Positions 25,554-36,647 of a DNA stretch of 64,000 bases are shown here, piece after piece. The translations under genes and the position numbers were made by a program. Position 1 is the stretch's first letter. Each line of letters begins with the position of its first letter. The stretch covers positions 30,507 through 94,506 of the forward strand of contig JBGCFG010000005.1 of NCBI GenBank assembly GCA_045106815.1, written 5' to 3'. Source of the stretch: Burkholderiaceae bacterium. Lineage in GTDB: Bacteria > Pseudomonadota > Gammaproteobacteria > Burkholderiales > Burkholderiaceae_E. Below the pieces are notes generated by a model. It made no database searches. It saw nothing but the letters and a program-made list of their open reading frames with translations, and was not told the DNA's origin.

Positions 25554-26404
25554 CTTCGGTGCTAACTTGGAACATTCAAAACGGCTTGGGGGTTAACGGC
25601 GACCGCTCGCTGGAGAGAATCGCCCAGGTCATTCACAGTCACGGCGACCCCGATGTTTTGTGCCTTCAGGAAGTTTCTCGGCACCTCGTGCTCGATCACG
25701 GGGTTGCAGCACCTGATCAGGTTTCTGAACTTGCTCAATTGTTTCCTGAGTATGAACCGGTGTTTGGGGCCGCTTATGACATCGTCCAGCGAGACAACGG
25801 ACAGCGCGCACAATACGGCAATCTGATTCTCAGTCGCTTACCCGTTCTGTCGCGCTTTTCGCATCCCTTGCCGCAACCGCCTTGCGGCGGAGAAATGCAG
25901 ATGCCCCGGCAAGCGATGGAAGTAAGCGTCATGGCTCATGACGGGCCGCTGCGAGTGATGACGACACATCTTGCGTTTCATTCGGCAACTGAGCGCCTCG
26001 CCCAGATTAAGGCCTTCAAGAGCATCCATGAAGCGATTGTGCAAGTCGCGGAGCATCCACCCAAGCAACTATCAAGTGGCCCGTATCAGGCGTTCGATCG
26101 AGCCAGTCGCGCTGTCTTGTGTGGTGACTTCAACTGTCTGCCTGAGTCCGACGAGTGGACAGAGTTGTTTGAGACTGCGCCAACTTCCAAAGCGCGCTTA
26201 CAAGATGCCTGGCGAGTTCTCTCAGGAGAGACTCCGCATAAACCCACTTGTGGCATTTTTGATCAAACTCAATGGCCTCAAGGTGGGCACTGCCGTGACT
26301 ACTTTGCCGTTGGTGGCGAACTGGCTAGCCAGATAATAGGCATGGTGACTGACACAAACACTGACGCTTCTGATCACCAACCCATTCGCCTTACGCTGAG
26401 CTAG
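25550..26404 (+). CDS. Endonuclease/exonuclease/phosphatase (EEP) family protein
   Basis: MTSVLTWNIQNGLG...DVLCLQEV...GDFNCLPESDEW...NTDASDHQPIRL shows the EEP catalytic motifs (N..E, D.N, SDH). An ATGA overlap joins it to the permease gene. Confidence 0.7.
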   Translation: MTSVLTWNIQNGLGVNGDRSLERIAQVIHSHGDPDVLCLQEVSRHLVLDHGVAAPDQVSELAQLFPEYEPVFGAAYDIVQRDNGQRAQYGNLILSRLPVLSRFSHPLPQPPCGGEMQMPRQAMEVSVMAHDGPLRVMTTHLAFHSATERLAQIKAFKSIHEAIVQVAEHPPKQLSSGPYQAFDRASRAVLCGDFNCLPESDEWTELFETAPTSKARLQDAWRVLSGETPHKPTCGIFDQTQWPQGGHCRDYFAVGGELASQIIGMVTDTNTDASDHQPIRLTLS

Positions 26405-27794
26405 CTGATCTGATGAACTGCTGAAGCTTGTTCATTGCAGGCACTGAATTGTCCCGCAGTTTGCTCAAGATTCTCTGTTTGACTTCGTCGTCTTTGGGCA
26501 CCCCAGACATCAACACCGTAAAGCCATCAAGCCGGTTCGTCTTGAGCCACGGCTTTATATCGTCAGCTTGTGACCACAAGTATTGGTTCATCATGCCGGC
26601 GGCCGTAAAGCGAACAAAATCAATGTCCTTGTCAGGCGGAGGCAACACACCACAAAGCTGATTTTTTTCGGCGTCTGTGCGCTCACTCGCTTCAATGAAG
26701 GCGATGAACGACGCGCTGAATACAGGCTGATAGGCACGGACCAACTGTGGCGTTATGCGTCTGCTCTCAAAGATTGGTTTAGGCGGGCGTAGCGTAATGG
26801 CACTTGCGGTGCAATCAATATGCACCTGATCAACACTTGTTGGGATACTCCCATCGGCAAGCTCGATCTTTGTTGCGGTCAGATGTTTGACGCGTCCTAA
26901 CCTGACAACCTGCTTTATCTTTCGAATTTCCGACAGTTCGGCCTGACTGATTGTGGCTGCATGAAACATGCTGGGCCGCACGCTTGGGTCTAGTCGCAGG
27001 AAGTAACCTCCTGCTTCAAGCCGATCAAACATGTCGTCAATTGATTCAGCCTCAGCGATCGCCTGCATTTGCGTGGCGATATTGCCAATACTGTATTCGA
27101 AGAACTCCTTGTCTGGCTGCGCATTGCGCCGATCTAAGAGCCAGGCGTCGCGAGGCATGATCCATCGAATGCTGTCTGGAGTGACACCGTTTTGCAGCAG
27201 CCACAAACAAGTATCAATACCTGTCTTGCCCCCGCCGATGACGACATAGCCACCGGCAGGTTTCGTCAGCCGGGGCAGTTCGTTTGGCGGCACGAAATGA
27301 ACATCATCATCAATCTGAAAGTTCGGCGTATGAGTACTGGGAATAGAGGGCATGTGATAGGCAGCATCAACGACTCTCTTTTTCACCTCAACAGTGTATT
27401 GCTCACCCGATAGAAGCGCTGTAAATCGCCCCTCTTCGTTGACATTGCACATGGGAAAGTACTGCACACGACCACTCGGCAAAAAGCGATGCTGCATCAA
27501 TTGCTCGTAGTAGCCGCACACCTGCGCACCAGTTGCCAGATCGAACAAGCCCTTGTTAAGCCCAACCTCATCTTTTTGCCCTGTGCCCAATTCAAGCGAC
27601 TGCACGCCATAAAACTGCGATGGCTGATGCAGCGTGACGAATGGGTAAGCCATGTTCCAGTGACCCCCTGGTTTGTGCTGGCGGTCCACCATAATCACCG
27701 TGGCATCTGACTCGGCAAGCAAAGTGTCAGTAAACGCCATGCCAACCGCACCCGCGCCAATGACGAGATAATCAGCTTTGAGGGTATTGGCCAT
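26391..27794 (-). CDS. FAD/NAD(P)-binding flavoprotein, class-B monooxygenase-like
   Basis: It has two dinucleotide-binding motifs: DYLVIGAGAVGMAF near the N-terminus and YVVIGGGKTGIDT in the middle. The ATG is at 27794 (MANTLKADY). Confidence 0.6.
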   Translation of the reverse strand: MANTLKADYLVIGAGAVGMAFTDTLLAESDATVIMVDRQHKPGGHWNMAYPFVTLHQPSQFYGVQSLELGTGQKDEVGLNKGLFDLATGAQVCGYYEQLMQHRFLPSGRVQYFPMCNVNEEGRFTALLSGEQYTVEVKKRVVDAAYHMPSIPSTHTPNFQIDDDVHFVPPNELPRLTKPAGGYVVIGGGKTGIDTCLWLLQNGVTPDSIRWIMPRDAWLLDRRNAQPDKEFFEYSIGNIATQMQAIAEAESIDDMFDRLEAGGYFLRLDPSVRPSMFHAATISQAELSEIRKIKQVVRLGRVKHLTATKIELADGSIPTSVDQVHIDCTASAITLRPPKPIFESRRITPQLVRAYQPVFSASFIAFIEASERTDAEKNQLCGVLPPPDKDIDFVRFTAAGMMNQYLWSQADDIKPWLKTNRLDGFTVLMSGVPKDDEVKQRILSKLRDNSVPAMNKLQQFIRSASSA

Positions 27795-27863
27795 AAGGTG
27801 CACGCTCCTGAAGTCGATGAGGTCTGACAGGCAAGCCCTGCCAAGCGCTGCATCTTAAGGGAT

Positions 27864-29255
27864 TCACGACATCCATACCGGCTCATGTGTGCCGAGTTGG
27901 CTTGCGCCTGTCTCCCAATGCATTGGCACCTTGCTCACGTCTATTGCCGGCTTGAGTCGCTTTGCCGGCCCCCAGGTGGTTTGTTCAGTTGCGGGTGAGT
28001 AGTCATCCGATGAAAACGCCTTAATGGTTTCACTGCCATCATCCGCGTTTTCTTGTAAGTGGCCAAATAGCAATGCCGCCGTTCTGGCTAGCGACAGCCG
28101 GGCAGTCAAACCGTGGCCCGATTCGCGCCTTCTCGTGAGTCCTTCAATCGCGCTGGCAGCCATAAGAAAACCAGTGGCATAGTCAAGCGCCTGGACGGGC
28201 AAAGGCACAGGCGAATCAACACCGCGCCAGCGCATACCCAGTTCGGCAATGCCGCTACTCATTTGCACCAGGCTGTCAAAGCCGCGCCTGTGTGCCCAGG
28301 GTCCTTGCCACCCGTATGCATTGAGACAAACATCCACCAGGCCCGGACGAATAGCGCGACGCGTTGCGCCATCCAGGCCGAGCCGCTCCAGGGCGTCGGC
28401 TCGATAACCATGGACCAGCACGTCAGCTTGGCTCAGTAAGCTTTGAAATTGCGCCTGTCCTGCTTCGGTGCGCAGATTCAGCCGCGCGCAGCGCTTGCCC
28501 AGCGTGACGTCGGGTACGACCGCTGGCTCATCCCAGTCCAGCGGGTCGAGCCGCAAGACTTGTGCGCCATAGCCCGCCAGTAGGCGCGTGGCGACCGGCC
28601 CGGCCAGGACTCGAGTCAGGTCAAGGACCTTCACGCCATGCAGCGGTCTACTGACAGGCGCCGGATCAGGCTTGCTCTGGTGCGTACTAAGCTCATCTGT
28701 CTGAAGGTCAATGAGTGGCTCATGATTGACGACCGAACCCTGTGGATGCAATTGCCATTGGGATGCCGCCAGCATGCGCGCCGCGCAGCCACCCGCTTGG
28801 ACAATGCTTGTTTCCAATTCTTCTCCTTGCCATTGGGCAACTGCGCTGGCCATCGCCGCTTTGTCATCGTGCGCGCCGAGTACGCGCTGAGCGGCCGCAC
28901 GATGCAAAGGCGCATTCGTGTGCAGGCGTATCCAGCCATCACGGCATCGATAGTCCCCGGCGATTGAATCCCACGGACCGGGTATTTCCCAGCCGAGTGG
29001 TCTGATCGTTGGCTGAAACCAGCCCGAAGCAAGCCGCCGATCGATCGTGACCGAAGGGGCCGATTGGTGAGTCGCTTCGATCAATCGCCTTAACACCAGC
29101 GCGACGGTAGCCTGACTGGCCGCTGCGAGTTCAGTGACAGGAAAGCGTGATTCGAGCGCCCCGTCTCCGGTAAAGCGCAAAACGTCAGCAGGGGGCGGTT
29201 GCAAGCCCAGCGCCGCTAGACATTCCGTTGTTATTTCGATCGCTAACTGTGTCAT
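27864..29255 (-). CDS. Family III CoA-transferase (CaiB/BaiF-type) with atypical domain order
   Basis: The hallmark N-terminal motif VKVLDLTRVLAGPVATRLLAGYGAQVLRLD starts only at about residue 208. The catalytic-Asp region is VQALDYATGFLMAASAIEGL. Residues 1-200 (DYRCRDGWIRLHTN...) resemble the small domain that is normally internal. Confidence 0.75.
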   Translation of the reverse strand: MTQLAIEITTECLAALGLQPPPADVLRFTGDGALESRFPVTELAAASQATVALVLRRLIEATHQSAPSVTIDRRLASGWFQPTIRPLGWEIPGPWDSIAGDYRCRDGWIRLHTNAPLHRAAAQRVLGAHDDKAAMASAVAQWQGEELETSIVQAGGCAARMLAASQWQLHPQGSVVNHEPLIDLQTDELSTHQSKPDPAPVSRPLHGVKVLDLTRVLAGPVATRLLAGYGAQVLRLDPLDWDEPAVVPDVTLGKRCARLNLRTEAGQAQFQSLLSQADVLVHGYRADALERLGLDGATRRAIRPGLVDVCLNAYGWQGPWAHRRGFDSLVQMSSGIAELGMRWRGVDSPVPLPVQALDYATGFLMAASAIEGLTRRRESGHGLTARLSLARTAALLFGHLQENADDGSETIKAFSSDDYSPATEQTTWGPAKRLKPAIDVSKVPMHWETGASQLGTHEPVWMS

Positions 29256-29304
29256 CGCGAGCTCCTAAAAGTTTTTTGCAAGATCAAGTTTTAAGGTGGA
29301 GCAT

Positions 29305-29335
29305 ATTGATGTCAATATTGATTAAATTGATCAAT
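29305..29335. promoter_or_regulatory. Cluster of ATTGA/TCAAT inverted repeats (putative operator) in the divergent intergenic region
   Basis: ATTGA-tg-TCAAT lies at 29305..29316, a third ATTGA at 29317, and the perfect 10-bp palindrome ATTGATCAAT at 29326..29335. The cluster sits in the 111-bp gap between the genes starting at 29255 (minus) and 29367 (plus). Confidence 0.5.
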
Positions 29336-29366
29336 GTAAAGTCAACACAATGGACGGAGTACCGGG

Positions 29367-30548
29367 ATGAATACCTGGATAACGGCGAAACAAGCATTGG
29401 CCAAACTCGGTATCAAGCCGCAATCGCTGTATGCCAATGTCAGCCGGGGCCGCATTCGCGCAAAACCTGACGCAAGGGACTCACGACGATCGCTCTACCA
29501 CCGCCAAGATGTCGAGCAGGTAGCAAAACGCAGAGCTGGGCGACAGTCGCAAAATACCGTGGCCGCGGAAACCATTCGCTGGGGTGCGCCCCTGCTGTCT
29601 TCAAGCATTACCGCCGTGATTGACGGCCAGTTGTTCTATCGCGGCCAAAATGTCGTGGCCCTTGCCGAACACGCAGCATTCGAACAAGTTTGCGAGTGCT
29701 TATGGATGACCAAGAATGTTCGCTTTGAACTAAGCAAGCGCGCGCAAACATCAAAGGGCTTTGAGTTGGATAGCCCTGTCGTTGATAGCTCACTAGTCGT
29801 CCTGGCTCGGCTGGCCAGCCAAACAAACCCGTGCCTCGGTCGGTCAAATCGCGTGCTGATTGAAGAAGCGACCATGATCATCCACCAGGTCATCAATGCC
29901 ATTATTGGCGAGCACGACACTAGCGACACGCCGGTTCATCTACGCCTGGCCAACGCCTGGTCGGCGCCGCAAGCAGCAAACGCTATTCGATGTGCGCTTG
30001 TTCTGCTGGCCGATCACGAACTCAATGCGTCCACGTTTGCCACTCGCGTGGCCATCTCAACTGGTGCGCCCCTGGCTGCGGGTTTGCTGGCGGGGCTAAG
30101 CACGCTCCTGGGACCCCGCCACGGGGGCGCAGCACACGCCATGCAGCAACTCGTTCAGCTGTCGTTGGCAACAAGTGCCCAAAGCGCTCTGCAGGCGACG
30201 CTTAATTCGGGCCTGCCGCTATCGGCGTTTGGTCATCCCTTGTACCCCGAGGGCGATCCGCGAGCCCGAGCTTTGATCCAGACATTCGATTTGCCGCTGG
30301 TCTTTGCTGAGCTGGAAGCGCTGGCAACCGACCTCACGGGTGAACGCGCCAACATCGATTTTGCGCTAACTGCCGTCGCCTACGCTCACGGTCTGCCGCC
30401 AGACGCTCCGTTTAAGATCTTCGCCACGGCGAGGCTTGCCGGTTGGGTCGCCCATGCGCTTGAACAGAATCACACCGGCAAGCTCATTCGGCCACGCGCT
30501 CAATATGTTGGACTTGCTCCGCCGGCCGAGCCGATCGCAAGTCTATGA
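29367..30548 (+). CDS. Citrate synthase-family protein with N-terminal excisionase/MerR-type helix-turn-helix
   Basis: The N-terminus, MNTWITAKQALAKLGIKPQSLYANVSRGRIRAK..., is an HTH. The C-terminal 330 aa are citrate-synthase-like. They carry GPRHGGA, AFGHPLYPEGDPRA and ANIDFAL, which correspond to the GPxHGGA, GFGHRVY..DPRA and NVDF catalytic His/His/Asp motifs of GltA. Confidence 0.7.
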   Translation: MNTWITAKQALAKLGIKPQSLYANVSRGRIRAKPDARDSRRSLYHRQDVEQVAKRRAGRQSQNTVAAETIRWGAPLLSSSITAVIDGQLFYRGQNVVALAEHAAFEQVCECLWMTKNVRFELSKRAQTSKGFELDSPVVDSSLVVLARLASQTNPCLGRSNRVLIEEATMIIHQVINAIIGEHDTSDTPVHLRLANAWSAPQAANAIRCALVLLADHELNASTFATRVAISTGAPLAAGLLAGLSTLLGPRHGGAAHAMQQLVQLSLATSAQSALQATLNSGLPLSAFGHPLYPEGDPRARALIQTFDLPLVFAELEALATDLTGERANIDFALTAVAYAHGLPPDAPFKIFATARLAGWVAHALEQNHTGKLIRPRAQYVGLAPPAEPIASL

Positions 30549-30637: not shown

Positions 30638-30738
30638 CACACGGCACAATATGCCGCTTTAAAGCCTGAGGCGATCTACGCTCACGAGAAGCAAAGCGTC
30701 GATCTCACTCAACCCCAACCTTGCCTGGAGAAACCCGG

Positions 30739-32199
30739 ATGACAGATCGATTCATGGATCGCTTTGCAAAGACCCCTGCCGTATTGCGCGCGCTCGTACT
30801 TGGCGCCCTCGTCACACTGGCCGCCTGTAGCCAGGAAGATCAGGACAAGGCAGCGGAGCAGGTCATGACGACCGCCGAAAAAACGAAGCAAGCCGCCGAG
30901 CAAGCCGTGGATTCAGCTAAAGAAACCGTAAACACAGCGACTGAAGCTGTGAAGGAATCTGCGGCCGGCATGGGCGATAAAGCAAAAGACATGGCCGATA
31001 AGGCGGCCGACACGGTGACAGAAACCGCCGAGAGTGCGGCTGAGCGCGCCAAAGAGTCAACCGCCGCGGTAACCGAGAAAGCCAAAGAAATGGCTGATAC
31101 CGCAACGCAGAAAGCTGGCGCTGCCGCCACCGCGGTTGCCGCTGCGGCCGCCGGTGCGACGGGCACTGGCACGAGCGCAGCCGGTAGTGCTGATGCAATT
31201 AAAGCTGCCTGGGTCTACATCGGCCCGGTTGGCGACGGTGGCTGGACATTTGCGCATGACAATGGCCGAAAAGCCGCCCAGGAAGCGATGGGCGACAAAA
31301 TGGTCTCCAGCTTTGTTGAAAGCGTGCCTGAATCTGCAGATGCAGAGCGGGTACTTCGAGACCTCGCTGTGCAGGGGAACCAGGTTATCTTTGGGACCAC
31401 GTTCGGCTACATGGAGTCAATGCGCAAACTAGCGAAAGAGTTTCCGGATGTCCGTTGGGAGCATGCCACCGGCTATAAGACAGCCGAGAATATGCGTACC
31501 TTTGACTCTCGTACCTATCAAGGCGCCTACATGGCCGGCGTGATTGCGGGCGCTATGACCAAGTCCAACACGCTGGGGGTGGTTGGCTCAATCCCCATTC
31601 CAGAAGTCATTCGCAACATCAACTCGTTTACGATGGGTGCGCAGTCTATGAACCCGGACATTTCAACCAAGGTTGTCTGGGTAAACAAGTGGTTTGATCC
31701 ACCGCGTGAAGCCGAAGCGGCTCAGTCACTGCTTGATCAAGGCGCCGACGTTTTGTTCCAGAACACCGATTCATCTGCCGTTTTGCAAACCGCGCAGAAG
31801 GCAGGAAAGTTTGCGTTTGGCTGGGATAGCGATATGACAGCCTACGGCCCGGAGGCCCATCTGGCGTCGGCGATCATTAACTGGGGTCCGTACTACACCC
31901 AGGCCATGACACAGGTTGCTGAAGGAACCTGGGAAACCGGCAGCTCATGGTGGGGGGTCGCCGAGGGGGCAATTGACATCGTGTCGATCTCAGACAAGGT
32001 CCCCGCTGAGGTCAAAACAAAAGTCGATGGCATTCGCGCTGGCCTCAAAGGAGGCATCTTCAAGATTTGGAAAGGCCCATTAATGGATTCCACCGGCAAA
32101 GAAGTTCTCGCTGATGGCGTGGTGGCCGATGATAAGTTCTTAAGTGGTGTGAACTTCTATGTCAAAGGCGTAGAGGGGCAGGTTCCAACCGGCGGCTAG
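30739..32199 (+). CDS. BMP-family (Med/PnrA-like) ABC substrate-binding lipoprotein with a long N-terminal Ala/Lys/Glu repeat linker
   Basis: It has the lipobox LVTLAAC. About 130 aa of amphipathic repeats follow (AEKTKQAAEQAVDSAKETVNTATEAVKESAAG..DKAKDMADKAADTV..). The BMP core then reads AAWVYIGPVGDGGWTFAHDNGRK...FGTTFGYM... Confidence 0.75.
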   Translation: MTDRFMDRFAKTPAVLRALVLGALVTLAACSQEDQDKAAEQVMTTAEKTKQAAEQAVDSAKETVNTATEAVKESAAGMGDKAKDMADKAADTVTETAESAAERAKESTAAVTEKAKEMADTATQKAGAAATAVAAAAAGATGTGTSAAGSADAIKAAWVYIGPVGDGGWTFAHDNGRKAAQEAMGDKMVSSFVESVPESADAERVLRDLAVQGNQVIFGTTFGYMESMRKLAKEFPDVRWEHATGYKTAENMRTFDSRTYQGAYMAGVIAGAMTKSNTLGVVGSIPIPEVIRNINSFTMGAQSMNPDISTKVVWVNKWFDPPREAEAAQSLLDQGADVLFQNTDSSAVLQTAQKAGKFAFGWDSDMTAYGPEAHLASAIINWGPYYTQAMTQVAEGTWETGSSWWGVAEGAIDIVSISDKVPAEVKTKVDGIRAGLKGGIFKIWKGPLMDSTGKEVLADGVVADDKFLSGVNFYVKGVEGQVPTGG

Positions 32200-33474: not shown

Positions 33475-33798
33475 TCAGGATTGCGTTTCCGGCATGCGTA
33501 CTGTCAATCCAGCCAGCGCCTCAGTCATTTCGATCTGACAAGACAAGCGGCTGTTGGCTTTTCGTTCGGAGGATGTTTGATCGAGCATCGTCACCTCATC
33601 TTCCGTGGCAGGCGGCAGTTTGTCGACCCACTCAGGCTCAACATAGACATGACAAGAGGCACATGACAAACACCCGCCGCACATCCCTTCAATACCATCC
33701 AAACCATCAAAAACAGCGGCCATCATGACCGAGTTACCAGGTTCGACTTCCAGAGTCGTGGAAGTGCCATCGTGAGCGATATAAATTACGTCTGCCAT
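33475..33798 (-). CDS. [2Fe-2S] ferredoxin, adrenodoxin/putidaredoxin type
   Basis: It has the MCGGCLSCASCHV motif (Cx5CxxC) plus the distal SRLSCQI cysteine. It is 107 aa long. Confidence 0.85.
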   Translation of the reverse strand: MADVIYIAHDGTSTTLEVEPGNSVMMAAVFDGLDGIEGMCGGCLSCASCHVYVEPEWVDKLPPATEDEVTMLDQTSSERKANSRLSCQIEMTEALAGLTVRMPETQS

Positions 33799-33822
33799 TG
33801 CTTTCGTTAGACCATTGCCAAA

Positions 33823-35274
33823 TCAGAAAAGATCAAAGTACTCCCGCTGCTCCCACTCAGTAACTTCTAGATGGAACCGCGCAAGCTCAAACTGCTTCAA
33901 TTGCGAATAGTAGTCGATAAATTCCTGACCAAACGCTTTTGAATAAAAGGGATCATCTGCCAGGGCGGCCAATGCCTGGTCCAGTGTTCTGGGTAGCAGC
34001 GGGTATTCGGACGCATAAGGCTCATCAGCACTCGCGCCCGGGTCCGCCTGCTGCGCGATTCCCTCAAGGCCTGCCGCCAGCTGTGAAGCAAGATAAAGGT
34101 ATGGGTTCGCCGCCGGCTCCCCTACTCTGTTTTCAATACGAGTGGCTGGATCTTCGCCGCCCCCAACCACGCGCAGCATTGCGCCGCGATTGTCTCGGCC
34201 CCAGTTGATCCGTTCAGGCGCCAGCGCATTCGGTCTATAGCGGCGATAACCATTGATTGTTGGCGTCGCAAAGACCGTCCCCGCCGCCGCATGGCGAACA
34301 AGCCCCCCCAGGTAATGGTGCCCGCTGGCAGCCAGGCCAGAAGCCAATGGCTTCGGATCACAAAACACATTACGACCTGAATCGAGCGAAATCAGTGACT
34401 GATGCAGGTGCCAACCGCTTGACATCGCATGCGGCAGAGCCGGCCGGCACATAAAGCTGATGTGATAACCGTGACGCTGCATGATTTGTTTGGCAGCATG
34501 CCTGAACTGCAGCATCGTGTCTGCGCCAGCTAACGCATCCTGCGGCCCGAAAACAAACTCAAGCTGGCTTGGACCAAGCTCAACCTCAACAGACTCGAGC
34601 GGCAAGCCCATGGCTATCAGGGGCTCTGTTAGCAGATCGACAACGGGCTCAAGCTTGTCGTAGCGTTGCTCTGACAACAGGCGATACCCCATTGACAGCG
34701 GGTTCACAGCGGGCGCGGCACCCGGCCAGCCAAGATCAGTCACATCAATCGCTTGCCCGGCCAGTCTGAACAAATGGCATTCAACCTCAAGCCCAACCCG
34801 CATTTGATAAGACTGCCGATGTGCCGACTCAAGACACCGTTGCAACACGCCGCGTGTATCAAACGGCACCAACTGACCCCTTCGCTCGCCCCGGTAGAAG
34901 TAGGGCTGACACTGTACCCAGCCTGAGCCCGGTGACCAGGGCAATTCAACGAAACTCAAGGGATCGGCAACGAGTAAAACGTCGGCTGCCCCTTCAAAGT
35001 CTTCGCTGCCAAAGCCGGCGCCCCGGGTAAACACAGCCTGTGTAGTTCGATCCGAACTATCTTTAAGCAGATTCGTCCCGACAAAACCCACTCCATTCTC
35101 TAGCGCAGCTTCTGCTCGCTGGGCGAACAATGCTTTACCGCGAACCAGTCCGTGCTGATCTGCCCAGCCAAAGCGAAGCCTCTTTAGTTCGCCATTGCGA
35201 AGGCGAGCTGACAGTCGCTTAGCCGCATCCTGCGCCTCGTCGGTCCATAACTGGTGACTCTGGACAAAACTCAT
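33823..35274 (-). CDS. Glutamine synthetase-family ligase (gamma-glutamyl-amine synthetase-like)
   Basis: This 483-aa protein has a GS beta-grasp plus catalytic domain pattern (FGWADQHG..., EVELGPSQLEF, SFMCRP...SSGWHLHQSL, NRGAMLRV, RIENRVGEPAANPY). It lies in an operon with an oxygenase, not with nitrogen-regulation genes. Confidence 0.8.
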   Translation of the reverse strand: MSFVQSHQLWTDEAQDAAKRLSARLRNGELKRLRFGWADQHGLVRGKALFAQRAEAALENGVGFVGTNLLKDSSDRTTQAVFTRGAGFGSEDFEGAADVLLVADPLSFVELPWSPGSGWVQCQPYFYRGERRGQLVPFDTRGVLQRCLESAHRQSYQMRVGLEVECHLFRLAGQAIDVTDLGWPGAAPAVNPLSMGYRLLSEQRYDKLEPVVDLLTEPLIAMGLPLESVEVELGPSQLEFVFGPQDALAGADTMLQFRHAAKQIMQRHGYHISFMCRPALPHAMSSGWHLHQSLISLDSGRNVFCDPKPLASGLAASGHHYLGGLVRHAAAGTVFATPTINGYRRYRPNALAPERINWGRDNRGAMLRVVGGGEDPATRIENRVGEPAANPYLYLASQLAAGLEGIAQQADPGASADEPYASEYPLLPRTLDQALAALADDPFYSKAFGQEFIDYYSQLKQFELARFHLEVTEWEQREYFDLF

Positions 35275-35285
35275 TGACTAACGGC

Positions 35286-36647
35286 TCATTGACTTAGGGT
35301 CTTGGTCTTGCTGGTCGTATCGAGGGCCCAGGGTGCGTTCATCCGGCGACGCTCATCAACGGCTTGCCACTGAGTCCTTAACTCAGCGGCGCCGCCGGTG
35401 CACACACCATCCATGGTCGCCGGACCGGTGACATTAGGCAGACTCTCTGTGCCCATAAAGCCCGGTGGCAAGGCCTTATCTTCCACGGCTTGCATGGCCT
35501 TAAGCAATTGACGACGGTTGGCCATGATGGCTTTGTCGGTTGTGCCTAGATGCTCTCTCGTGCGATCAGCGATGGGTCCTGGCGACTCTACAGCCCACTG
35601 GTCGTGCACATTGATATCTTCGCCCATACCGGTGTATGTCCGACTGTCTTGCTCTGCCGCAGAAAAGCCGTACCGGTTGTGTGCGCCGGTGATTGGTGCG
35701 TAATCAGGCAGGCGATGCATGGCAAGTCTTTGCGCGAGCATCGTGGCTTTGTCTACAGGCTCTGCGAAACTCGTGAACAGGGTAAACCAGTAGGTATGAG
35801 TGTCATCGACGGGCACATGCCACTGCGTGATCGTCATCGTCTCTGAGAGCGGCAAGACGATCGCATTAGGAAACAGGCCATTGGTCACGCGCACATGGGT
35901 TTTGCCCTCACCCAAATTTCGAAGCGTCGTAAGGCGCAAGCCAAAGTCGGTTGGCTCTACCTGAATCTCGGGTCGGTCAAACTGCCTGAGCACTTCAATC
36001 ATGGTGAGTTCTGAGTTGGCAGACTCACTGCGAAATTGTTTGCCATAGGCCTCTTCTTGCTCACCGTCCTCAAAGAAGCGATGCAAAAATGAGGCATGCG
36101 CCGGATCTATGCCTACTTCATGCGCCTGCAGCCAGTTGCAATGCCACAGGCCCTTGAACGCAAAAACATGCGAGTCTGGCGCTACAAAGCAATCAAGCGC
36201 AGGCAAAGGCGCCGGCGTTTGGTCACCCAACCAGGCGAAGATGGCGCCGTTTCGCTCGGTGACCGGATACGCTGTCTGTTGGATCCGCTCGCACAGCTTG
36301 CTTCCGAAAGGCTCTGCCGGTGTTTCAAGACACTTACCGGTGCTGTCAAACAACCAACCATGAAACGGACACCGCAACCCACCCGCTTCAAGCCGCCCGT
36401 AAGACAGGTCAGCACCCCGATGTGGGCACGCCCGATCCAGCAAAGCCGGCTCACCCTGCTCATCGCGGAACAAAACAAGGTTTTGGCCAAGCAAGCGCAC
36501 GGGGATGACAGGACGTTTGACGCCGTTTTGTAGTGCGTCCAACTCGCTACTGAGCGCAACGGGATGCCAATAGTGCCGAAGTAGATGACCTCCGGGCGTA
36601 CCTAGGCCAACTTCAGTCAGTCGCTGGTTTTGTGAAGCCGAAATCAT
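35286..36647 (-). CDS. Rieske [2Fe-2S] non-heme iron oxygenase, alpha-subunit only (phthalate-family-like)
   Basis: The Rieske motif is CPHRGADLSYG...CPFHGWLF. A catalytic domain with a His-rich region follows (QAHEVGIDPAHASFLH). There is no beta subunit gene. Confidence 0.8.
   Translation of the reverse strand: MISASQNQRLTEVGLGTPGGHLLRHYWHPVALSSELDALQNGVKRPVIPVRLLGQNLVLFRDEQGEPALLDRACPHRGADLSYGRLEAGGLRCPFHGWLFDSTGKCLETPAEPFGSKLCERIQQTAYPVTERNGAIFAWLGDQTPAPLPALDCFVAPDSHVFAFKGLWHCNWLQAHEVGIDPAHASFLHRFFEDGEQEEAYGKQFRSESANSELTMIEVLRQFDRPEIQVEPTDFGLRLTTLRNLGEGKTHVRVTNGLFPNAIVLPLSETMTITQWHVPVDDTHTYWFTLFTSFAEPVDKATMLAQRLAMHRLPDYAPITGAHNRYGFSAAEQDSRTYTGMGEDINVHDQWAVESPGPIADRTREHLGTTDKAIMANRRQLLKAMQAVEDKALPPGFMGTESLPNVTGPATMDGVCTGGAAELRTQWQAVDERRRMNAPWALDTTSKTKTLSQ

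Follow-up and report, generated by a model that had tools for sequence, protein, structure and literature searches.

Trigger enzymes such as PutA, BirA and NadR are proven enzymes that carry a ribbon-helix-helix or classical helix-turn-helix (HTH) domain, and none of them has a citrate synthase (CS) fold. The position divergent from prpB-prpC is usually occupied by a methylcitrate-responsive regulator such as the sigma-54-dependent PrpR. The literature searched yielded no description of a CS fold serving as the sensor of a regulator, and no paper on an HTH-citrate synthase regulator. Here we describe a family of proteins with this architecture, starting from a 393-residue HTH-CS fusion encoded at 29367..30548 (+) in a 64,000-nucleotide stretch of contig JBGCFG010000005.1 from a Burkholderiaceae bacterium (GenBank assembly GCA_045106815.1), hereafter the window.

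The closest described locus is in Caulobacter crescentus, where citB (CCNA_03757) and citC (CCNA_03758) are adjacent and divergent (Berge et al. 2020, eLife, PMC7083601). Escherichia coli gltA was complemented by CitB and not by CitC; the paper treats CitC merely as a putative third citrate synthase, assigns it no regulatory role, does not mention a helix-turn-helix and uses 'DNA-binding' only of CtrA (PMC7083601). Based on primer-encoded N-termini, gene adjacency and related Caulobacter genomes, CitC appears to belong to the HTH-CS family. The citC primer (ATG ACC GAC TGG ATG GAC; PMC7083601) encodes MTDWMD, which resembles the N-terminus MADWID of the HTH form in Caulobacter sp. Root655 (locus L045), while the citB primer (ATG TCT GAT GGT CTT GAG GGC GTG; PMC7083601) encodes MSDGLEGV, which matches the divergent HTH-less partner read from the reverse complement upstream of locus L023. 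A first-pass annotation, made from the letters of the window, knew of no characterised member of this architecture; CitC is apparently a named member, though one without an assigned function (PMC7083601).

We computed domain architecture, fold, residue conservation, partner statistics and the conservation of an operator-like motif in both directions, from gene to motif and from motif to gene. Judged by these sequence and model comparisons, the gene annotated as a citrate synthase most likely encodes a DNA-binding regulator with the CS fold as its metabolite sensor. We think it probable that the protein is an autoregulated one-component transcription factor with a CS-derived sensor and dimerisation domain, rather than a housekeeping citrate synthase. 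The family is previously unrecognised. The first-pass annotation had proposed an enzyme-derived sensor-regulator or a moonlighting enzyme, and this interpretation is supported as far as computation goes.

Domain architecture and spread of the fusion

The gene was characterised from the open reading frame list, Pfam and AlphaFold2, and inspection of the sequence revealed a Shine-Dalgarno-like GGAG (29356..29359, +) 7 nt 5' of the ATG. A Burkholderiaceae metagenome-assembled genome encodes a protein of 100% identity to its product, which NCBI lists as 'citrate/2-methylcitrate synthase'. The full-length AlphaFold2 model, based on 120 sequences, had a mean predicted local distance difference test score (pLDDT) of 86.4 and comprises an N-terminal MerR/excisionase-type winged HTH (residues 4-56; 29376..29534, +), a basic linker (residues 57-78; 29535..29600, +; pLDDT 52-69, with residues 68-75 below 50) and a CS fold (residues 72-377; 29580..30497, +).

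The winged HTH was identified from the models, Foldseek and HTH_17. In the AlphaFold2 model a strand precedes helices 7-14 and 18-26, a two-strand wing (32-34 and 42-45) and helix 46-56, with helix 18-26 (QSLYANVSRGR) as the probable recognition helix. Residues 1-56 were modelled as a winged HTH at pLDDT 87-92 both in the full-length model and in a separate model of residues 1-66 (pLDDT 84.5), which agrees with the earlier assignment of the first 60 residues. When Foldseek was run with residues 1-66, all matches were DNA-binding winged-helix proteins. The best with low root-mean-square deviation (rmsd) were mycobacteriophage Pukovnik Xis (template modelling (TM) score 0.65/0.75, rmsd 2.0) and SoxR (TM 0.68, rmsd 2.1), and further fold matches included BldC, RacA, GlnR and many MarR-type proteins. 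HTH_17 was matched by 94 of 120 homologues at E ≤ 0.01 (best 5e-6). In family alignments, conservation is highest over the first 60 residues, with the consensus W-L-T-A-x-Q-A-L-x-x-L-G-x-x-P-Q-T-L-Y-A-N-V-S-R-G-R-I-R-A-K-P-D-P-x-D-x-R-R-S-L-Y; Y22, S26, R27 and Y44 are invariant in 158 full-length members of the family, whose identity to the query ranges from 28% to 100% and which form the sample for all residue counts below.

The remainder of the protein is a complete CS domain, as the first-pass annotation had claimed. Its Citrate_synt match (E 7.3e-51) runs from residue 72 to 377 and covers profile positions 3-357 of 357, which places it in superfamily PF00285, and the signatures GPRHGGA, FGHPLYPEGDPRA and NIDF named in that annotation were all found in the translation. 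Sequence matches in the PDB were citrate and 2-methylcitrate synthases; with the whole model, the top Foldseek matches were PrpC/CS, that is, short dimeric citrate and 2-methylcitrate synthases (E 2e-14, 22-27% identity). The oxaloacetate/citrate pocket is complete, comprising H217, N220, H252, H290, R299, D331, F352, R356, R375 and R377. Among the 158 members, H252, R299 and R356 (H274, R329 and R401 of pig CS) are always conserved, as are R375 and R377, equivalent to pig R421 of the partner subunit, followed by N220 (pig N242) and F352 (pig F397) in 157, D331 (pig D375) in 156, H217 (pig H238) in 155 and H290 (pig H320) in 152. Near-invariance of this order indicates strong selection on the oxaloacetate/citrate pocket and the dimer-dependent arginine.

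The CoA side of the active site differs from that of the HTH-less, 'CitB-like' citrate synthases often encoded next to the fusion: GFGHRIYRVRDPRA in these partners becomes aFGHPLYPxGDPRA in the HTH-CS family, with GHPLYP in place of GHRxYK, and a six-residue basic loop (KPdRpL) preceding N-I/V-D-F is absent from the family consensus. The position of P294 is proline in 119 of the 158 members and lysine or arginine in 26. Every oxaloacetate/citrate-binding residue is kept, and the basic residues expected to hold the CoA phosphates are apparently lost. None of the 20 NCBIfam models listed, which include the curated equivalogs and subfamilies for citrate and 2-methylcitrate synthase, scored the window protein above its cut-off (best TIGR01800, 151.9 versus 421.3 bits).

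This active site is where a bifunctional trigger enzyme has to be weighed, that is, a protein that still functions as a citrate or 2-methylcitrate synthase, or that works alongside the CoA-transferase as a citryl-CoA lyase, and that also binds its own operator, with turnover setting DNA binding as in PutA and BirA. Such an enzyme would account for a complete CS fold with an H252/H290/D331 triad and oxaloacetate-binding residues near-invariant across 158 sequences down to 28% identity, for the acyl-CoA/oxaloacetate chemistry of neighbouring genes (CoA-transferase, CitB, prpBC) and for the basic residue retained at the P294 position in 26 members. It fits less well with GHPLYP in place of GHRxYK, with the deletion in the family consensus of the basic loop before NIDF, with scores far under every curated citrate synthase model and with the failure of Caulobacter CitC, against the success of CitB, to rescue E. 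coli gltA (PMC7083601). We regard it as unlikely.

In a scan of one genome per species, the HTH-CS fusion was present in at least 599 species genomes, always with its N-terminus; these belong to Alpha-, Beta- and Gammaproteobacteria, apart from one Sorangium. Among the top 120 homologues, alignments span 95-100% of the query, N-terminus included, and the public name is 'citrate synthase'. With a profile of the HTH alone, 1,955 representative clusters matched at E ≤ 1e-3, and 319 still did so at E ≤ 1e-10. Because 8 of 10 longer matches sampled also contained Citrate_synt, this HTH subtype looks largely specific to the fusion; the other two gave no second domain match, one of them being a tandem-HTH protein. 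A 270-residue protein recovered with the HTH-only profile (P0251) is made up of five tandem HTH_17/MerR-like repeats, with HTH_17 matching in five stretches at E 4e-41.

HTH_17 is an excisionase/AlpA-type family and a phage Xis gave the best low-rmsd match in fold, both of which would be expected of a mobile-element remnant, with an excisionase-type HTH (a recombination directionality factor) fused accidentally to a CS gene and the palindromes beside it serving as attachment or recombination sequences. Yet the neighbourhood contains no gene for an integrase or any other mobile-element function, inheritance of the fusion is stable across the same 599 or more species in a conserved chromosomal context, and the motif described below always falls in the gene's promoter region. 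An origin of this kind therefore seems to us extremely improbable.

A conserved motif in the divergent spacer

The spacer between the fusion gene and the divergent CoA-transferase gene (29256-29366) is 111 bp long, and most of it is taken up by an array of half-sites. It reads ATTGA (29305-29309) tg TCAAT (29312-29316) a TTGAT (29318-29322) taaattg ATCAAT (29330-29335) gt, to position 29337, and includes the perfect palindrome ATTGATCAAT. The palindromes that the first-pass annotation had pointed out at 29305-29335 are thus present, and they are one example of a motif conserved upstream of the gene family. The core of the motif, TCAATATTGAT-TAAATTG-ATCAATGT (29312..29337, +), is its sole match in the window. 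An extra half-site on each side extends it: upstream, ATTGA (29305..29309), which forms ATTGA-tg-TCAAT with the core, and downstream, GTCAAC (29341..29346), about one helical turn past the last core TCAA and kept in the relative L082.

Across the family, the motif is an oriented sequence of ~26 bp with the consensus TCAATCTTGAT-N7-ATCAAYRT. Searching the upstream regions of 80 genome loci identified TCAATCTTGA at ≤2 mismatches in 77 of them (64 exact), starting 24-108 bp 5' of the start codon and on the strand of the gene every time. T-N7-ATCAA-Y-R-T follows at fixed spacing, with 15 positions near 2 bits and no indels. At the protein level, the motif loci are only 36-53% identical to the query, so conservation is stronger in the DNA site than in the protein. 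Exact TCAATNTTGAT-N7-ATCAA occurs a single time in each of 58 loci (~13 kb), always in the same place, and once in the 64-kb window (29312-29334), where 0.19 occurrences would be expected even at 2 mismatches. The two closest relatives, whose proteins are 85% and 64% identical to the query, retain TCAATCTTGAT-N7-ATCAATAT, and the Caulobacter loci bear the same motif.

The site can be read as an array of TCAA/TTGA half-sites, namely TCAA-tc-TTGA plus TTGAT-N7-ATCAA. At loci L025 and L037, the central dinucleotide of TCAA-tc-TTGA is inverted. Flanking half-sites differ by lineage, with ATTGACGTCAAT (ATTGACG upstream) in many alphaproteobacteria and Variovorax, and an extra half-site, ATATATTGAT, downstream of the core in Paraburkholderia. 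Ten Paraburkholderia loci (L051, L056-L060, L070, L074, L076 and L079) have the operator-like site farther from the start codon (about 60-108 bp), followed by conserved ATATATTGATTT, an extra half-site, and share a larger conserved gene neighbourhood on both sides.

The association also holds in the reverse direction. Metagenome contigs were scanned for the motif's 17 specified bases alone and 80 contigs were examined: an HTH-CS gene lay 3-62 bp downstream in the same orientation in 60, and 2 more contigs ended within a diverged HTH N-terminus (62/80). Three contigs contained a LysR-type box, and the remaining ones look like chance, being low-GC or intragenic matches. In the LysR-type cases, AAAATAAAATATTCAATCTTGATACTTTGAATCAATCAT at L106:1289-1312, L115:4304-4327 and L148:925-948 matches the operator pattern exactly and goes with another type of regulator, lying beside a LysR-type regulator gene; at L106 and L148, its far side is occupied by a distant CoA-transferase homologue (30% identity). 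This may be a coincidence or a shared site.

Some of this evidence could be claimed for a different reading, in which the protein is an ordinary metabolic citrate synthase, its N-terminal extension is vestigial or has a use unrelated to an operator, and the motif is a promoter element or the site of another regulator. Database names read 'citrate synthase' throughout, and a -10-like hexamer (TATAAT, GATAAT or TAGAAT) lies within the motif in 38 of 78 loci, so its conservation could be partly promoter-related. Against this, conservation of the protein peaks in the HTH, the invariant bases of the motif are the TCAA/TTGA repeats and not the -10-like spacer, and the window has ATTGAT as its spacer hexamer, a sequence that does not resemble a -10 element. 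Moreover, the motif lies in the promoter region of the HTH-CS gene in alpha-, beta- and gammaproteobacteria whatever the partner gene, as expected for the regulator's own operator. We therefore consider an ordinary synthase very unlikely. No RNA family was found in 29150-29450 (Rfam, E ≤ 1).

Divergent partners and gene neighbourhood

To describe the genes that share the spacer, we surveyed 172 loci with a recognisable start. The divergent partner was an HTH-less, CitB-like citrate synthase at 114 loci, a homologue of the window's CoA-transferase at 26 and something else at another 26, with too little sequence to classify it at the remaining 6. Linkage to a divergent gene, which had been put forward for the window on the basis of one locus, is accordingly conserved. 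A CitB-like partner scored above the NCBIfam citrate synthase subfamily cut-off (450.7 versus 332 bits). Partners in the 'something else' group included prpB-prpC at no fewer than seven loci, for example L075, where methylisocitrate lyase (PrpB) reached 525.7 versus 353 bits and 2-methylcitrate synthase (PrpC) 692.6 versus 550 bits; others in this group include small cupin-like or DinB-like genes. The nearest-neighbour regulator had the same type of partner in 98 of 102 CitB-type, 24 of 26 CoA-transferase-type and 8 of 10 prpBC-type cases, and partner type thus tracks regulator phylogeny. CoA-transferase-type loci sit in several clusters, which suggests repeated recruitment of this gene. What is conserved is a unit of three parts: the regulator gene, the operator and a single divergent gene from citrate, methylcitrate or acyl-CoA metabolism.

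All 29 CitB-like partners examined (L005:4816-5964(-), L010, L024, L033 and others) have N-V-E-F, with Glu at the canonical catalytic Asp, although Caulobacter CitB is reported to complement E. coli gltA. No second CitB-like gene was found in the 64-kb window. Loci L036, L043 and L077 retain the HTH signature in the form YAYVSRGL or YAYASRGV, and the divergent genes of L036 and L043 begin with His-rich or membrane-like sequences.

The window's own partner is a divergent family III CoA-transferase of 463 residues (27864..29255, -; CoA_transf_3 E 3.6e-46), which is the probable regulated target. Its profile match is limited to residues 205-397 and the first 203 of 366 CoA_transf_3 positions, the catalytic-Asp motif is retained as GFD, and its PDB match is a formyl-CoA transferase (E 8e-24). 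The N-terminal ~200 residues (1-204) matched no Pfam family. Circular permutation, in which these residues would be the displaced C-terminal half, was considered and is not supported, as they gave no CoA_transf_3 match even at E ≤ 10. This 448-465-residue form is a widespread subfamily, named merely 'CoA transferase', that includes many Pseudomonas sequences.

Downstream of the CoA-transferase lies a gene for a putative flavoprotein of 470 residues (26391..27803, -). Its only match is of Rossmann/flavin adenine dinucleotide (FAD) type at the N-terminus (NAD_binding_8, weak at 21.9 bits and exactly at the cut-off), and a search against the PDB gave no significant match. It is probably part of the CoA-transferase operon in this lineage only. 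A role for it in the conserved module was rejected because it is present solely in the two closest relatives (L081 and L082). The acyl-CoA-handling operon proposed by the first-pass annotation is therefore borne out in its CoA-transferase, which recurs at 26 of 172 loci, and not in its flavoprotein.

Both closest relatives retain the synteny of the locus together with the motif, and they alone have in common the flavoprotein and a Bmp lipoprotein downstream. The latter corresponds in the window to a Bmp/PnrA-type ATP-binding-cassette substrate-binding protein (30721-32199, +) with an N-terminal extension of ~140 residues rich in Ala, Lys, Thr and Glu; the extension gives a weak match to an apolipoprotein repeat profile and is conserved in L082. 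Farther along, positions 33475-36647 (-) encode a 2Fe-2S ferredoxin, a glutamine-synthetase-like protein and a Rieske/LigXa-type oxygenase, a cluster that is syntenic in L081 and L082 and looks like a gamma-glutamyl-dependent pathway for amine or aromatic demethylation.

Proposed mechanism and comparison with known systems

From the evidence above, we infer DNA binding by the HTH-CS protein together with the likely class of ligand, a tentative sign of regulation and the allosteric route. The CS-fold domain would dimerise as all citrate synthases do, since the arginine lent to the partner's active site is retained, and the dimer would therefore display two N-terminal winged HTHs. These would bind the TCAA/TTGA half-site array (TCAATCTTGAT-N7-ATCAAYRT, here 29305-29346), whose layout suggests that more than one dimer may be bound, by analogy with BldC or Xis. 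The CS pocket would sense oxaloacetate, citrate, 2-methylcitrate or a compound closely resembling them. A natural candidate for the switch is the closing of the small CS domain when ligand binds, which could displace the paired HTHs and thereby alter how the DNA is occupied. In this way the protein would control both its own gene and the divergent one, namely the CoA-transferase (with the flavoprotein) here, a CitB-type citrate synthase in most species and, in some, prpBC. It is plausible that the regulator represses its own gene by occluding the promoter, because the site lies 24-108 bp from the start codon and contains a -10-like hexamer in 38 of 78 loci.

A bolder version, possible in our view though doubtful, makes the protein a trigger enzyme in which the open-to-closed movement of CS on binding oxaloacetate is the allosteric switch. 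Across hundreds of proteobacterial species, the expression of an alternative citrate synthase, a methylcitrate operon or a CoA-transferase would then be set by occupancy of the active site, and substrate turnover may persist.

Several observations weigh against the regulator reading. The catalytic Asp is retained in 156 of 158 members and both catalytic His residues are retained, none of which a pure sensor would need, so the HTH-CS protein may still be an enzyme. The altered loop positions are presumably those of pig CS R324 and K366/K368, which hold the CoA phosphates, with P294 at the R324 position; no citable list of CoA-contact residues was found in the literature searched. On the DNA-binding side, the window protein matched HTH_17 (PF12728) over residues 4-56 at 19.2 bits (E 1.5e-3), below the gathering score of 27 bits. 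The HTH sequence profile gave chance-level matches alone in the PDB (E 0.3 or worse), with no solved relative, and Foldseek E-values for the domain were 0.03-0.3, a weakness expected for 66 residues. Loci L036, L043 and L077 lack the motif within 260 bp upstream, and a sigma-70 and terminator scan of 29150-29450 detected no promoter or terminator. Finally, the CoA-transferase does not depend on the regulator everywhere: no HTH-CS gene lies beside its homologues (57-58% identity) in Pseudomonas and in a Steroidobacteraceae genome.

If the regulator reading is right, at least 599 species genomes contain a 'citrate synthase' gene that is probably a regulator, and metabolic reconstructions in which it is counted among the citrate synthase isozymes are likely wrong. 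The CS fold would be added to the enzyme folds recruited as sensor domains, and the failure of CitC to complement gltA would have an explanation. The operator is unusually well defined and can be tested in a model organism through Caulobacter citB-citC. The family also provides a pointer to the control of alternative citrate synthases and, in some bacteria, of the methylcitrate cycle, and a protein-operator pair that responded to oxaloacetate, citrate or methylcitrate could be used in biosensing.

Among known systems, the N-terminal domain shares its fold topology with SoxR, BldC and Xis, and like BldC and Xis it apparently faces several short repeats rather than one dyad. It differs from the MerR family in that a CS fold, and not the MerR C-terminal coiled coil or effector domain, follows the HTH; sequence similarity is marginal, and neither a promoter-like site in 29150-29450 nor, around the window site, a promoter whose spacer measures 19-20 bp was detected. 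Next to prpB-prpC, the HTH-CS protein takes the divergent position of PrpR-type regulators at seven or more loci, and to our knowledge it has no sequence or domain relationship to sigma-54-dependent PrpR. The trigger enzymes PutA, BirA and NadR are alike in combining an enzyme fold with an N-terminal DNA-binding domain and an operator in their own divergent promoter, with occupancy by a metabolite or substrate expected to set DNA binding; the enzyme activity of the HTH-CS protein is doubtful by comparison. Compared with Caulobacter, where the divergent partner of CitC is a citrate synthase, the window apparently shares both family and locus layout and has a CoA-transferase in the partner's place. 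Alike in logic are MocR/GabR (aminotransferase fold), ROK (sugar-kinase fold) and RpiR (SIS domain), which carry a different type of HTH and, as proposed here for the HTH-CS family, join it to a repurposed enzyme fold that retains its ligand pocket and regulates genes of a related pathway.

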